The translations under genes and the position numbers were made by a program. The notes below the pieces were generated by a model. The model worked only from the letters and a program-made list of their open reading frames with translations. It searched no databases and was not told the DNA's origin. This document shows, piece after piece, positions 59,046 to 63,681 of a DNA stretch of 64,000 nt (position 1 is the first letter of the stretch; the number at the start of each line of letters is the position of its first letter). Source of the DNA: a virus (lineage: Duplodnaviria > Caudoviricetes); the IMG/VR virus record IMGVR_UViG_3300013126_000028, positions 1,595-65,594 of that record. The stretch is one strand, 5' to 3'.

Positions 59046-59153
59046 GTATTGAAATCGCCCCCATTATTGAGCGTCATTTGTATAGAACAAAGAGAGGCTA
59101 CAGGGCGATACTCTTAGCGATCAACCTAAAAGTGTCTGTTAATTCAGATCTTG
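59046..59153 (-). ncRNA. Unrecognised structured RNA motif, copy 1
   Basis: Homologous to 63555..63681 with compensatory changes in its stems. Confidence 0.65.
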
Positions 59154-59159
59154 TTTTAT

Positions 59160-59396
59160 TTATATTTCTTCTCCAGTTTCATAATCTATCACTGGATATT
59201 TCCAAGCCTCTTTCACCAAGGAGGGAAGTGGTATCCCCGCTTTATCTTGTACCGTTTGTAAATCTATTAAACTATCCTGTACATAAACCGGCATATTATG
59301 AATGTTTACAACATCTTGATTTTCATCAATAAATACTGGATACAATCCATATTTATCCTGTTGCTTGACGATACGATATTTCCAGCCTGCGGTCAT
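59160..59396 (-). CDS. W.YR-family small protein
   Basis: WKYRI...PVIDYETGEEI; paralogue of 59393..59626 and 63682..63918. Confidence 0.7.
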   Translation of the reverse strand: MTAGWKYRIVKQQDKYGLYPVFIDENQDVVNIHNMPVYVQDSLIDLQTVQDKAGIPLPSLVKEAWKYPVIDYETGEEI

Positions 59397-59626
59397 GTTT
59401 CTATTTCCTGTAGAGTGTCATAATCAATTATAGGACTCTCCAAGCATTTTATCAATCGTTCGACCGTTTTTCTTAGATCGTCCACAGTTTCTTCACTGAT
59501 TCTTATTGGTTCTTCAGTCAAACCATTAATCTTTCCATCTTTATTATAGTAAATCTCATATAACATACTATCATCCATATGAGTATTAGGATAAGTTCTA
59601 CGAACTACTCTGTGATTCCACGACAT
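59393..59626 (-). CDS. W.YR-family small protein
   Basis: MSWNHRV...E.YY...G...TE.P...PIIDY. Confidence 0.7.
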   Translation of the reverse strand: MSWNHRVVRRTYPNTHMDDSMLYEIYYNKDGKINGLTEEPIRISEETVDDLRKTVERLIKCLESPIIDYDTLQEIET

Positions 59627-59632
59627 TTATAA

Positions 59633-59941
59633 TTATTGTGATATTCCACAATCTCTGCTTAATTGAGGTTGTTTTAATATTGATTGCATAGAGTCAGAAA
59701 TATTTCTATTTTGTTCCAGATATTTGTTGTGACGTTTCACCATATATTCTGCTGTTTCTTGATCCAATGATCCAGCATCCACAATACTATACTCATGTTT
59801 ATTCTCTGGATTTTCTGGATGACTATAATAGATTGGCTCAACAGGAACTATAATTCTACACCAACAATCTGGTCCACTAAAACATTCGATCACTTTCCAT
59901 TTGACCAGAAAGGACAGTTCTCTTGCTTGTTCAAAAGTCAT
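59633..59941 (-). CDS. Hypothetical protein
   Basis: WK...C..G..CWCR.I, AE..V..HN. Confidence 0.65.
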   Translation of the reverse strand: MTFEQARELSFLVKWKVIECFSGPDCWCRIIVPVEPIYYSHPENPENKHEYSIVDAGSLDQETAEYMVKRHNKYLEQNRNISDSMQSILKQPQLSRDCGISQ

Positions 59942-60444
59942 TTTAGTCCCATACTTTTCATTTGTAATATAACTTCAGCATTTCCTTTTGCATCATTTAC
60001 TGGATTATGATCGTGAGTTGTTTTTCGCAAGTGTTTCCATTTTGCTCTGGTATCTTTAACTAATCCACAATATAAATCTCCTATGCGGCGACCCGAATAT
60101 CCAAAAGGATTTTCTCCAATAAAATAATGAAAGTAATAGTTGATCCATTGCCAATCATAACACGGATTGTCACTAATAAAAACCGGCTTGCCAATACTAT
60201 TAGTTTTTAGCCAATAACTAAACTGTACCATTACACTATATGAATCATCAAAAGTTTCATGTTGTTCTCTTGAGAATCCACTAATTTTTAGTGTATCGTC
60301 TTGATATTTTTTTGATATGGGTTTAGTTTGACCGTAAAAAGTTTTATCTAAATATTCATCTACAATAACACAACCAAAACAAATCATGCTATATTCTGGA
60401 GGAATAGGCCCATCACTTTCAACATCAACAACGATTAGAGACAT
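59938..60444 (-). CDS. DEDDh 3'-5' exonuclease
   Basis: VDVESDG, DN..YD, H.H....DA. Confidence 0.8.
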   Translation of the reverse strand: MSLIVVDVESDGPIPPEYSMICFGCVIVDEYLDKTFYGQTKPISKKYQDDTLKISGFSREQHETFDDSYSVMVQFSYWLKTNSIGKPVFISDNPCYDWQWINYYFHYFIGENPFGYSGRRIGDLYCGLVKDTRAKWKHLRKTTHDHNPVNDAKGNAEVILQMKSMGLK

Positions 60445-60670
60445 GATTATATCCAGCTAGTTTATTAGCAGCATTTAAAGCGGTTAGTATTTTTTCACTT
60501 AAAAAGTCTTTTTTAGATTGATTATCACCTTTACTGTCCAATTTAAGTTCTATTAGTCCTTCGTCAAAAGCATCTCTTAAATCCTGAGAGAATGATATAC
60601 AACAATAGATGGCGTTTACTTCGTCACTAGTTAGTTTTGGCCCTTGCGAATTTATAGTAGTTTGATTCAC
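60425..60670 (-). CDS. Hypothetical protein
   Basis: 81-aa ORF. Confidence 0.6.
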   Translation of the reverse strand: MNQTTINSQGPKLTSDEVNAIYCCISFSQDLRDAFDEGLIELKLDSKGDNQSKKDFLSEKILTALNAANKLAGYNHVSNRC

Positions 60671-60876
60671 AACAACGGTTCTCCAGTTTCTAAAACATAT
60701 AGCATCCTATATAGTTGATTAGCGTCTCCGTTAATAATTAAGTCGATAGGTTTCTTACCGTTAAAACCAGCATTTGGAGAGTTTAACCAACTGTCAATAA
60801 GTTCTGGCTCTATTAGTTTTTCTAAGCGATTTCTAATATCTTTTTCAAGATCATCATTAAGTTGTTTATCATTCAT
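60667..60876 (-). CDS. MbcA/ParS/Xre antitoxin C-terminal-domain-like protein
   Basis: WLNSPN..F.G..P.DLI..G...L...L..LE.G. Confidence 0.78.
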   Translation of the reverse strand: MNDKQLNDDLEKDIRNRLEKLIEPELIDSWLNSPNAGFNGKKPIDLIINGDANQLYRMLYVLETGEPLL

Positions 60877-61511: not shown

Positions 61512-61787
61512 CTATGAGGATTCATATTCCACACACCCCAATAGTTGAATTTGTCCGGCTTTATCATCTATGATTAATTCTTTAACTTTCTTCTGTGCTA
61601 GTTCTTCAGTATCAAATTTATCACCCTTTAATTCCCAAAATGAACAATCATAATTACTATAGGTTAGTGCTTCGTAATTGTACCAAAAAATCCACCACTT
61701 AATTTTTATTTGATACCATTCTTTATTATTAGCGTCTTTGAATTTACATATTTTATATTTCATACTTTCAAATCCTTCAATAACCAC
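61512..61787 (-). CDS. Hypothetical protein
   Basis: 91-aa ORF, probable start at MKYKI. Confidence 0.6.
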   Translation of the reverse strand: MVIEGFESMKYKICKFKDANNKEWYQIKIKWWIFWYNYEALTYSNYDCSFWELKGDKFDTEELAQKKVKELIIDDKAGQIQLLGCVEYESS

Positions 61788-62335
61788 CTTTTAACTTCCA
61801 TAGGATGTTTATCAGTATGAGGTTGAGTAGCACTAATATAGCCCACAGCAAAATCAATAACAGTATTTAGCAATTTATTTTCTCTCCTTAAATCAAACAC
61901 ATCATTTGTAAGATTAAGACTAGACTGTTTTAATTGTTGTATCTCTCTATTTAGTGATATTTTATCTTCTATATATTCTGCTATTCTGCTTTCATTAGCA
62001 CTATTAAGTCTCTTTAATTCATCAATTTCTTTTTGTTTGATAGTTTCTAAATCTTTTACTTTTTCTTCTAATTCTTTGTAGGTAGATTTATTAGGAGCAT
62101 AAACAGTAGCAGCAAACTTATCGAATTCTTGATAATATTTTTTAATTTCTATTAGATGATCTTCTAGATCTTTATTTTTTCGTTCTAACTCGTCTATCTC
62201 ATCTGCGAGAGATAGTATATGCTTATTAAGATTTGGATTTTCTTCGCATAATTGTTCTATGGTTTTATAGTCGCTCATTAAGTATATCCTGTTTATAAAA
62301 GTCTTTGAATCTTTTCCACCCAACTGCTGAACCAA
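61760..62335 (-). CDS. Coiled-coil hypothetical protein
   Basis: Heptad-rich; probable start at MSDYK. Confidence 0.65.
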   Translation of the reverse strand: MVQQLGGKDSKTFINRIYLMSDYKTIEQLCEENPNLNKHILSLADEIDELERKNKDLEDHLIEIKKYYQEFDKFAATVYAPNKSTYKELEEKVKDLETIKQKEIDELKRLNSANESRIAEYIEDKISLNREIQQLKQSSLNLTNDVFDLRRENKLLNTVIDFAVGYISATQPHTDKHPMEVKRWLLKDLKV

Positions 62336-62546
62336 GTTTAGTTTCTTTTAAGAATTTAAGATCAACAAACAAATCATGATATTTAATAATGTCGTCTCTT
62401 GATATTTCTACCTTTATCTCATATTCTTTAAACTGTTCTTTAAATTCATAAGAATATTCTACATCATCTTTTATTTCTTTTTTAAATCTATCTAATTCTT
62501 CTTGATTTAAGAATCTTGTTAATAAGTATTGTTCAGAGTCTCTCAT
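62265..62546 (-). CDS. Hypothetical protein
   Basis: 93-aa ORF. Confidence 0.6.
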   Translation of the reverse strand: MRDSEQYLLTRFLNQEELDRFKKEIKDDVEYSYEFKEQFKEYEIKVEISRDDIIKYHDLFVDLKFLKETKLGSAVGWKRFKDFYKQDILNERL

Positions 62547-62611
62547 AATATTTATTAACTCTTTACATATAAGTTAGACTACTTTTGTTTATTATATTTC
62601 TTCTATAAAAA

Positions 62612-63028
62612 CTATTCACAATTATTTGTACCAAAATGTGTCATCTGTCCATCCTTAACCACAAAAACTTTAACTTTTCCACTAGACCTAATATAATCTC
62701 GTCCCCCATCAATCATGTTCCCATTCTTAAAACTCTTATAATCGTGGCGACTTTGGCTATACTCTAGTTCGCCCTCATCATTCTCCACCATACCAAAAGT
62801 TAAGTTCTCAATACTGTCAGCATTAGCCACATAAAGATCATCCCCACGAAAAAATAAGCAAAAATACTTGTTACCAAACTTTGGATGCGGAGTTGATCTA
62901 TAAAAAATATCCGCAACAGTATCACCAAATTCTGTGGAGCAAACGTGTTTTACCTCAACCTGATCTTTTTCAGAATAGACTTTTTCCGCCTGCTCAATCT
63001 TAGTAACTGGATAGTGTTTGATAATCAT
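62612..63028 (-). CDS. Phage hypothetical protein
   Basis: DIFY...PHP.FGN.YF, YS..RHDY, IDGGRDYIR. Confidence 0.75.
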   Translation of the reverse strand: MIIKHYPVTKIEQAEKVYSEKDQVEVKHVCSTEFGDTVADIFYRSTPHPKFGNKYFCLFFRGDDLYVANADSIENLTFGMVENDEGELEYSQSRHDYKSFKNGNMIDGGRDYIRSSGKVKVFVVKDGQMTHFGTNNCE

Positions 63029-63184
63029 ACAACCAATCTCCCCAATAAATTTTTAATAGTCTCACTAATATTTACGCCGTTCACAATAAGATCATTATCT
63101 GGATAAGGATTCACCAATAGGCTATGTTTTTCCACATAATCCATCGCACGACTATAGCACCAATAAATAGCGTACTTTTCGTCT

Positions 63185-63538
63185 TTACTTAGTTCTATAT
63201 TCATGTTTCTTTGCTAATTGTTTTACGTTTAAAAAATTTAATCCCACAATTTCCTTAGTATCAAAACTAATATGAAGTTCCGTATCTTCATTTATGGTTT
63301 GAACATAATAATCTTCATCTTTAAAATGAATACTCACTTTATCTAAATCTTGATTATAGTAGGAATATGGGACAAAGGAACCTACATATGTACTATAAGT
63401 ATACCACGGAGGATCGCATCTGTCAATGCCTAATCTTGATAGTTTAGCATCTACACCTTCTCTTATTTCCTTATAACTTTTAATTTTAGTTTCTGGAAAT
63501 AGATTGAAGATGCTAAAGAAACCTGTTAGAAACCCCAT
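63185..63538 (-). CDS. Hypothetical protein
   Basis: 117-aa ORF. Confidence 0.65.
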   Translation of the reverse strand: MGFLTGFFSIFNLFPETKIKSYKEIREGVDAKLSRLGIDRCDPPWYTYSTYVGSFVPYSYYNQDLDKVSIHFKDEDYYVQTINEDTELHISFDTKEIVGLNFLNVKQLAKKHEYRTK

Positions 63539-63554
63539 AATAGTTTTCCTTTTT

Positions 63555-63681
63555 GTATTGAAAACGCCCCCGTTATTGAGCGTCAGTTATCGGTACAGAT
63601 TTTCATCTGGAATAGATAACGAGAGGCCCAAGGACGTTACTATTGCGATCAACTCAATAGTGTCGGTTAATTCCGATCTTG
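63555..63681 (-). ncRNA. Unrecognised structured RNA motif, copy 2
   Basis: Homologous to 59046..59153, with a longer variable inner stem. Confidence 0.65.

Follow-up and report, generated by a model that had tools for sequence, protein, structure and literature searches.

A structured RNA of large lake-water phages that lies outside the catalogued RNA families

What is the sequence that occurs twice between the small genes of the virus IMGVR_UViG_3300013126_000028 (Duplodnaviria; Caudoviricetes), and what could it do for the phage? The window analyzed here is a 64,000-nucleotide (nt) stretch of this IMG/VR record (positions 1,595 to 65,594), and a sequence-only reading of it had claimed two minus-strand copies of a structured RNA. 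Both copies are present, and every sequence detail given for them was found. The motif is almost certainly a functional structured RNA, and it recurs in 50 distinct sequences that share one fold. Almost nothing is known about how large uncultured freshwater phages control their long arrays of small early genes, and the motif is a rare case of very strong comparative evidence for a complex RNA fold in such phages.

A duplicated RNA fold and its family

The R1 covariance model, built from 40 distinct copies of the motif, was used to set the copy boundaries on the minus strand. Copy A is a match of 109 nt at 59044–59152 (111.3 bits), and copy B is a match of 128 nt at 63553–63680 (106.7 bits). 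The third-ranked R1 match in the window scores 12.1 bits at an expectation value (E) of 0.27, and the motif occurs at just these two places in the whole 65.6-kb record, which is about 47% complete. With their flanks, the two copies are 81% identical per column. Each is set between a 78-amino acid gene ending PVIDY.TGEEI on one side and the ribosome-binding site of the next gene on the other, and each alone folds into the hairpins P1 and P2 and a long P3 arm, with minimum free energies of −27.8 and −36.7 kcal/mol (z-scores −2.45 and −2.80). The opposite strand folds less strongly (z −1.96 and −1.79).

Read on the minus strand, copy A opens with AAGA (59149–59152) and P1 (59135–59148; UCUG-AAUUAA-CAGA), continues with P2 (59110–59133; an 8-base pair stem with loop GUUGAUCG), and then forms the P3 arm (59054–59109), in which 59102–59109 pair with 59054–59062 as P3 and 59097–59099 pair with 59070–59072 as P3a. 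An internal loop of CUCU (59093–59096) opposite GAC (59073–59075) leads to a short P3b (59076–59092), and the bulge CAAUAAU occupies 59063–59069. The tail UUCAAUACAA (59044–59053) is followed by AGGA and by start codons at 59033 and 59026. Copy B has the same order: the conserved AAGA (63677–63680), P1 with a 4-base pair stem and an AAUUAA loop (63663–63676), P2 with a 7-base pair stem and loop AGUUGAUCG (63639–63661), and the P3 arm (63563–63638), made up of P3 (63631–63638 with 63563–63571), P3a (63626–63629 with 63578–63581), the internal loop CUCU (63622–63625) opposite GAC (63582–63584), a variable P3b (63585–63621), and the 3' bulge AAUAAC (63572–63577). Its tail, again UUCAAUACAA (63553–63562), runs into AAAGGA and an ATG at 63538. 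For the two copies, the sequence-only reading had given P1 as TCTG-AATTAA-CAGA and TCGG-AATTAA-CCGA, P2 as ACTTTTAG-GTTGATCG-CTAAGAGT and ACTATTG-AGTTGATCG-CAATAGT, and P3 as ATCGCCC/GGGCGAT and AACGTCC/GGGCGTT. All of these are read on the minus strand as described, as are the inner GC-CTCT...GAC-GC loop and the tail TTTCAATACAA right before the next ribosome-binding site.

Relatives were gathered by exact-pattern scans seeded from the conserved loops, and the R1 model was run over these pattern-seeded loci. The inner 3' motif gave one locus and its gapped form three. The P1 pattern gave 15 loci, 12 of them real and three due to chance (L129, L136, and L137). The pattern that joins bulge, P3, and tail gave 38 loci; of the 25 that were new, 23 have the motif sequence and two are chance matches (L149 and L157). 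The combined P1 and P2 pattern led to 32 metagenome contigs, and one loose pattern returned 120 stretches that are all chance matches except the window's own two copies. R1 matches 71 times in 71 sources, which amount to 50 distinct sequences from viral and metagenome contigs. A covariance model and search had been suggested from the two copies, and the family that they recovered upholds the covariation. Motif lengths are 98 to 135 nt, plus one of 176 nt, and the variation sits in the apical P3b. The length differences are not multiples of three, and therefore the region is not coding.

The fold common to the family consists of P1, P2, and the long P3-P3a-P3b arm. It was scored on a MAFFT alignment of 40 sequences (38 distinct) that had not been fitted to any structure, using 31 pairs, 500 shuffles of the pairing partners, and partners slid by 1 to 3 columns. 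The structure pairs in 87.7% of 1163 cells compared to 70.4% for the shuffled partners, none of which reached the observed value (0/500), and the slid partners pair in 38 to 47% of cells. The covariation score on this alignment is 0.49, against a comparison value of 0.17. An independent RNAalifold prediction from the same alignment has 22 pairs, 14 of them with compensatory changes. In a model-based alignment of the 50 distinct sequences, which leans towards the covariance model, 90.1% of cells pair and 22 of the 31 pairs have compensatory changes.

The support extends over the individual helices. P1 pairs in 100% of cells with compensatory changes in three of four pairs, P2 in 85 to 89% with six of eight, and P3 in 99.5 to 99.7%. 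P3a pairs in 96.7 to 100% of cells, and all four of its pairs are compensatory, with combinations that include AGC/GCU, GAC/GUC, UGC/GCA, UUG/CAA, and AAC/GUU. P3b pairs in 64% of cells on the MAFFT alignment, a value that partly reflects register shifts and U.U mismatches. Compensatory stems around fixed loops could have arisen by chance when judged from two copies alone, yet the pattern is upheld across the family. The near-invariant positions are AAGA before P1, AANNAA in the P1 loop, UUGAUC in the P2 loop, UCCU and GGGG inside P3, CUCU opposite RAC between P3a and P3b, the 3' bulge RAUAAY, UAU at the start of the P3b loop, and the tail UUUCAAUACAA, which is UUU(C/U)AAUA(C/U)A. UCCU and GGGG are fixed while the neighboring P3 pairs covary, which suggests a role for them beyond simple pairing. 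The helices contain 173 G.U and 37 A.C among 1466 cells. The preference of G.U pairs for the minus strand that had been noticed in the two copies thus extends to the family, and the excess indicates that the gene-sense strand is selected as RNA.

Other pairings and uses of the sequence were considered. A pseudoknot between the P2 loop and TCAAT in the tail is formable in 97.4% of cells with no compensatory change, both sides being nearly invariant: three of its pairs never vary, one changes from G-C to G.U in three sequences, and one is broken in six. The alternative pairings CCUCU/GGGGG and P1-loop AUUA with bulge UAAU were rejected on inspection by eye, their variants being uncompensated. 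Programmed bypassing or read-through by way of in-frame stops in the P1 and P2 loops was also rejected, since the P1-loop stop is not conserved (AAUCAA, AAACAA, and others occur) and, for bypassing, the landing frames judged by eye differ between the two window copies.

The motif was compared with the 4227 models of Rfam 15, which include twister, hatchet, pistol, hammerhead, hepatitis delta virus-like, and all riboswitch classes. There were no matches at gathering thresholds across the 64-kb window. At E up to 10, four weak matches occur in 58700–64000 and neither copy is touched, and at E up to 1 nothing falls on the motif in the relatives L197 to L200. ARAGORN found no transfer RNA or transfer-messenger RNA genes in the window. 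When the two copies were compared by blastn with 50,697 records of cultured phages, no real match came up; copy B has two 27-nt hits at E 0.1, and copy A has none. The Rfam comparison had been proposed at the outset as a check on novelty, and no known family matched. A family of 50 distinct members, five covarying helices, loops that do not vary, and the lack of a match in Rfam 15 strongly support the proposed structured RNA outside the known families. These data identify the motif as an orphan phage structured RNA that is absent from Rfam.

The carriers are large uncultured lake-water phages. The window's sequence occurs in 12 runs with the label of lake-water or freshwater metagenomes. At E up to 0.01, exactly one copy was found in each of five phage genomes (145–231 kb, 94–100% complete), and so the motif is not a multi-copy repeat. 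Two copies occur in the window's record and in the contig behind L169, where they lie 7.3 kb apart at 882–982 and 8298–8424, both on the minus strand. A minimal L169 copy of 101 nt is the shortest full copy, with a P3b of about 3 base pairs and a U-A pair in P3 where U.G is usual. In the genomes G001, G004, and G002 the motif lies within co-directional arrays of small open reading frames (ORFs) that extend at least 20 kb on each side, at least 40 kb in total. The carrier phages encode an RIIA-like protein that is 35 to 38% identical to those of cultured phages over about 40% of its length. T4 Gp23 (PF07068) matched none of the five genomes in a search whose controls were also silent. A T4-like label for the carriers was dropped on account of these two results, the RIIA relation being distant. 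The sole match in bacterial genome assemblies is on an 11-kb contig of a metagenome-assembled genome labelled Chitinophagia. The contig has the appearance of phage DNA and gives no reliable indication of the host. In this copy (L208:1464–1639, minus strand), P3b is enlarged by an insertion exceeding 60 nt; a GIY-YIG-type ORF on the opposite strand (1678–2385, plus) adjoins the motif. As a marker of this phage group, the R1 model can be applied to lake metagenomes.

Genes and promoters around the motif

The gene directly upstream of copy B (63682–63918, minus strand) encodes 78 amino acids and belongs to phrog_21321, a family of unknown function (PHROG E 2.9e-14). The gene upstream of copy A (59160–59396, minus strand) is a paralog of the same length, 40% identical to the copy B gene and with no PHROG match of its own. 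The two copies had been said to follow paralogous genes with a common ending, and both genes indeed encode 78 amino acids and end PVIDY.TGEEI. A third paralog (59393–59626, minus strand) ends PIIDYDTLQEIET and has no RNA after it; its 3' end contains an 11/12 promoter match (59427–59455). The proposal that the RNA travels with this gene is true of part of the family. A regular-expression test placed a phrog_21321-type gene directly upstream in 25 of 44 distinct contexts, and the remaining 19 have other genes or non-coding DNA at that position. In G001, a gene of the family lies about 700 nt from the motif. The reading frame of the upstream gene runs into the RNA in some relatives and stops at UAA in the P1 loop or at UGA in the P2 loop. 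The sole cultured-phage relative of the protein, from Mycobacterium phage Gaia, is 32.5% identical.

The structure of the copy B upstream protein was predicted by AlphaFold2 from a 27-sequence alignment. The model has four strands and a helix with a predicted local distance difference test score (pLDDT) of 91. Foldseek against the PDB returned nothing at E of 0.001 or better. A wider structural search ranked PC4 homologs first (top Z 4.5; phage T5 PC4-like protein, 4.0; human PC4, 4.0), with YdbC at Z 3.9 and Pur-alpha at Z 3.4. The topology of the model agrees with the four-strand-plus-helix fold of PC4, Whirly, and Pur-alpha, with Z scores in the range that the tool assigns to common arrangements. 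The predicted fold is a lead rather than a finding that the protein may resemble single-strand nucleic-acid binders.

A sigma-70-type promoter for the RNA, located within the gene's last codons, accounts for part of the linkage between RNA and gene. Matches of at least 10/12 to a sigma-70-type promoter were counted when the −10 element ended 4 to 36 nt before the motif, and 3000 random 94-nt windows from the same loci and strand served as background. Such matches occur in 19 of 44 distinct upstream contexts compared to 5.5% of the random windows. When a 130-nt window is used, 28 of 40 copies have a match of at least 9/12, and seven are perfect 12/12 matches to TTGACA-17-TATAAT. TATAAT ends 7 nt before the first A of AAGA in 10 of the 44 contexts, and the start predicted from it coincides with the 5' edge of conservation. 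The promoter of the common gene subfamily is TTG(T/C)AA-16-TATAAT, encoded by ...C(K/N)KP.IDYNT..., and the other subfamily has a perfect promoter further upstream, encoded by ...LTKCLESPII.... The two subfamilies thus encode TATAAT by different codons (DYN or PII), which suggests that the promoter is under selection along with the peptide. The copy B gene has a 10/12 match, TTGCAA-16-TATAAT, in its last codons (63700–63727, minus strand), and its −10 element ends 19 nt before copy B. The match nearest to copy A (11/12; 59427–59455, minus strand) lies in front of the upstream gene. The ATAAT inside the motif was rejected as a −10 element because no consistent −35 element is found 16 to 18 base pairs before it on inspection by eye, no formal scan having been made.

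Several other promoter-like sites were seen. Genes of the phrog_21321 family have a sigma-70-type promoter within their last 15 codons or so. On the gene strand of the window there is a perfect TTGACA-16-TATAAT at 61451–61478 (minus), an 11/12 match with an extended TG lies at 63398–63426, and strong promoter-like sites recur about every 2 kb in the window's array. The sequence TATAAATA at 59141–59167 (minus strand), a few bases upstream of the AAGA of copy A, is not shared by the other copies inspected; we take it to be the T4 late-promoter consensus.

The motif runs directly into the next gene. A Shine-Dalgarno sequence and an ATG lie 9 to 15 nt beyond the tail in most of the 41 distinct downstream contexts, which leaves no room for a promoter, and the next gene would therefore be read from a transcript that crosses the motif. 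The downstream genes fall into about 20 different N-terminal sequences when grouped by eye. In the window, copy B is followed by a gene of 117 amino acids with no family match (63185–63538, minus strand), and copy A by a gene of 71 amino acids (58811–59026, minus strand) with a tandem paralog of 70 amino acids (58594–58806, minus strand) that is similar from the N-terminus on. In about 11 relatives a second conserved element of about 125 nt takes the place of the ribosome-binding site directly after the tail (L138:924–1061, minus; L148:5289–5426, plus; L177:987–1122, plus; shorter form L192:255–396, minus). Its closing stem is CAUGG/CCAUG, its 5' part is rich in purines, and it contains inner hairpins; nine of its 37 predicted pairs are compensatory. 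An apparent 16-codon ORF in this element is frame-shifted in L177, and the element is therefore probably RNA. It is absent from the window and has no Rfam match. In genome G002, a DUF3800-VIII RNA (RF03075) was noted about 650 nt downstream of the motif (L197:2274–2357, plus strand), where it scores 40.2 bits, exactly the gathering score.

Readings of what the RNA does

We favor the reading, with a probability of about 40%, that the motif is a promoter-proximal leader RNA whose action does not depend on which gene follows and to which a putative factor binds. The observations that it draws on are that the motif forms a family with one fold, which strand is the RNA, how many copies a genome has, and where these lie with respect to promoter-like sites and ribosome-binding sites. 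In many genomes transcription would begin at the sigma-70-type promoter within the final codons of the small upstream gene. The transcript would then fold into the P1 and P2 hairpins and the P3-P3a-P3b arm, and its tail would run into the next Shine-Dalgarno sequence. The unpaired nucleotides that do not vary would be recognized by a factor, which could be a protein, a small ligand, or RNA polymerase itself. Its binding would set how transcription passes the G-rich 3' strand of P3 and the U run, and would also set the use of the adjacent ribosome-binding site. The next gene is different in almost every lineage, which implies a module that works whatever follows it. The transcription start, expression of the RNA, any termination at P3, the cis-regulatory action, and the effector itself are predicted parts of this scheme.

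Several points weigh against a leader of this kind. Riboswitches and protein operators do not usually stand, as this cis-regulator would, in front of genes of unknown function that keep changing. The upstream contexts are related by descent, and so the promoter enrichment does not represent 19 independent events. Within 90 nt, a good promoter is lacking for copy A and for about one third of all contexts. P3 is followed by a short U run, and a simple intrinsic-terminator scan of 58000–64000 called none on the minus strand. Compared to the hallmarks of a terminator, P3 encloses 45 to 110 nt and only UU(C/U)AAUA follows the stem; P3 and the U run may form a weak or regulated terminator. The second structured element after the tail in about 11 relatives means that translational control is not the sole role. 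None of the 12 runs with the window's sequence is an RNA run. Finally, L158, a 114-kb viral contig, is a natural deletion variant in which the 3' half of the motif, from the 3' strand of P3b onward, is fused to an unrelated ORF (about 4886–4906, plus strand), and the RNA is thus dispensable in that genome.

Many of the same observations can be read as those of a stand-alone immediate-early noncoding RNA that is released by termination at P3 and the U run, or by cleavage in the AU-rich tail, and acts in trans. This is possible though doubtful. Such an RNA could sequester a host protein or a defence factor as a decoy or sponge, or it could target RNA polymerase as the put antiterminator RNA of phage HK022 does. 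It would fit the one copy per complete genome, the predicted start at the 5' edge of the motif in 10 of 44 contexts with P1 about 4 nt from that start, and the lack of relation among the downstream genes; the second element directly after the motif in about 11 relatives would then resemble a cluster of noncoding RNAs. In most copies, however, the next Shine-Dalgarno sequence is within a few nucleotides with no promoter between, and efficient termination would silence the next gene. The shortness of the U run also counts against release by termination, and no target or partner is known. A bolder version, which we consider unlikely, is an immediate-early phage RNA with its own biochemical activity, either a new self-cleaving ribozyme or an RNA that engages the host RNA polymerase holoenzyme. 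The polymerase version is conjecture and would make the motif a put-like antiterminator or a 6S-like decoy early in infection. The invariant AUAAU bulge directly followed by GGGG presumably resembles a non-template −10 element with a G-rich discriminator.

The association with the upstream gene could instead mean that the RNA is an operator or 3' untranslated region element: the phrog_21321-family protein would bind the RNA that is encoded at and beyond its own stop codon, and in this way regulate itself or the next gene. The adjacency in 25 of 44 contexts, the frames that run into P1 or P2 in some relatives, and a confident protein model whose top structural neighbors are single-stranded nucleic-acid binders point this way. 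We nevertheless judge it improbable: the Z scores are those of common arrangements and Foldseek is empty at E of 0.001 or better, no such gene is directly upstream in 19 of 44 contexts, some 700 nt separate gene and motif in G001, the third paralog has no RNA, and the embedded promoter accounts for the linkage without any binding.

Phage-borne ribozymes typically have no consistent downstream gene association. The motif has none either, and its compact multi-helix fold with many invariant unpaired nucleotides and a peripheral hairpin of variable length would suit a self-cleaving ribozyme of a new class, with the early polycistronic transcript as its substrate. We hold this to be highly improbable, because the prior is low, there is no likeness to the Rfam ribozyme models even at E up to 10, neither a multi-helix junction nor a nested pseudoknot can be seen, and the sequence has no cleavage-site signal. 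Least probable of all is a cassette of promoter, terminator, and ribosome-binding site, similar to the stem-loop cassettes of T4-type phages compared below, that works mainly at the DNA level as a recombination point with hairpins that are incidental terminators, since the arrays of small variable genes, the combination of promoter, stems, and Shine-Dalgarno sequence, the flanks that differ between genomes, and the breakpoint inside the element in L158 would all fit, but one copy in five of five complete genomes, a promoter upstream of a five-helix fold, invariant loops, and the excess of G.U over A.C (173 versus 37) argue for selection on RNA.

The clear landmarks, a promoter at the 5' edge and a ribosome-binding site at the 3' edge, make the motif directly testable in vitro. 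If it were a true riboswitch, ribozyme, or RNA directed at RNA polymerase, it would add a new class. If it were a true mRNA-stabilizing or translation-enhancing leader, it would be a portable expression module of these phages.

Comparison with known systems

The motif shares its data source and its kind of evidence with the candidate structured RNAs (DNAVirus_X entries) of Fremin et al. 2023 (PMC10690425). By that paper's description of its screen, IMG/VR intergenic regions were searched with CMfinder and R-scape covariation, which gave 8495 unnamed candidates of 29 to 151 nt (Fremin, Bhatt and Kyrpides 2023, PMC10690425). A full-text literature search found no paper that describes the motif; the 8495-candidate list of PMC10690425 was not compared, and earlier cataloguing there is possible, though an entry in it would carry no assigned function.

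Riboswitches and other cis-acting leaders have a similar layout. The motif has the order of promoter, conserved fold with invariant junction nucleotides, and variable hairpin, followed by a G-rich 3' strand with a U run and then the Shine-Dalgarno sequence. The differences are that no Rfam riboswitch or leader model matches the motif and that its downstream genes are about 20 unrelated small ORFs of unknown function rather than genes of one pathway. No riboswitch-like alternative pairing with covariation support was found.

The put antiterminator RNA of HK022 consists of promoter-proximal stem-loops separated by a single nucleotide and occurs once or twice per phage genome. Like put, the motif has promoter-proximal stem-loops one nucleotide apart and one or two copies per phage genome, and it would act whatever gene follows. 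A put-like site at the head of an operon was rejected, since the motif lies in the middle of co-directional arrays and not at their head. That the motif acts on RNA polymerase like put is pure conjecture.

The promoter-early stem-loop (PeSL) cassettes of T4-type phages were reportedly described by Arbiol et al. in 2010. PeSLs combine a stem-loop with a sigma-70 promoter and a Shine-Dalgarno sequence at indel boundaries (Comeau et al. 2014, PMC4122927). Both PeSLs and the motif are intergenic in hyperplastic arrays of small genes, at mosaic boundaries, and in each of them stems occur together with a sigma-70-type promoter, a Shine-Dalgarno sequence, and a start codon. PeSLs are many per genome and clustered, whereas the motif occurs once per complete genome, with two copies in the window's record. 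The order of the parts also differs: the PeSL is a simple stem-loop upstream of its −35 and −10 elements, and the promoter of the motif lies upstream of a five-helix RNA with strong covariation.

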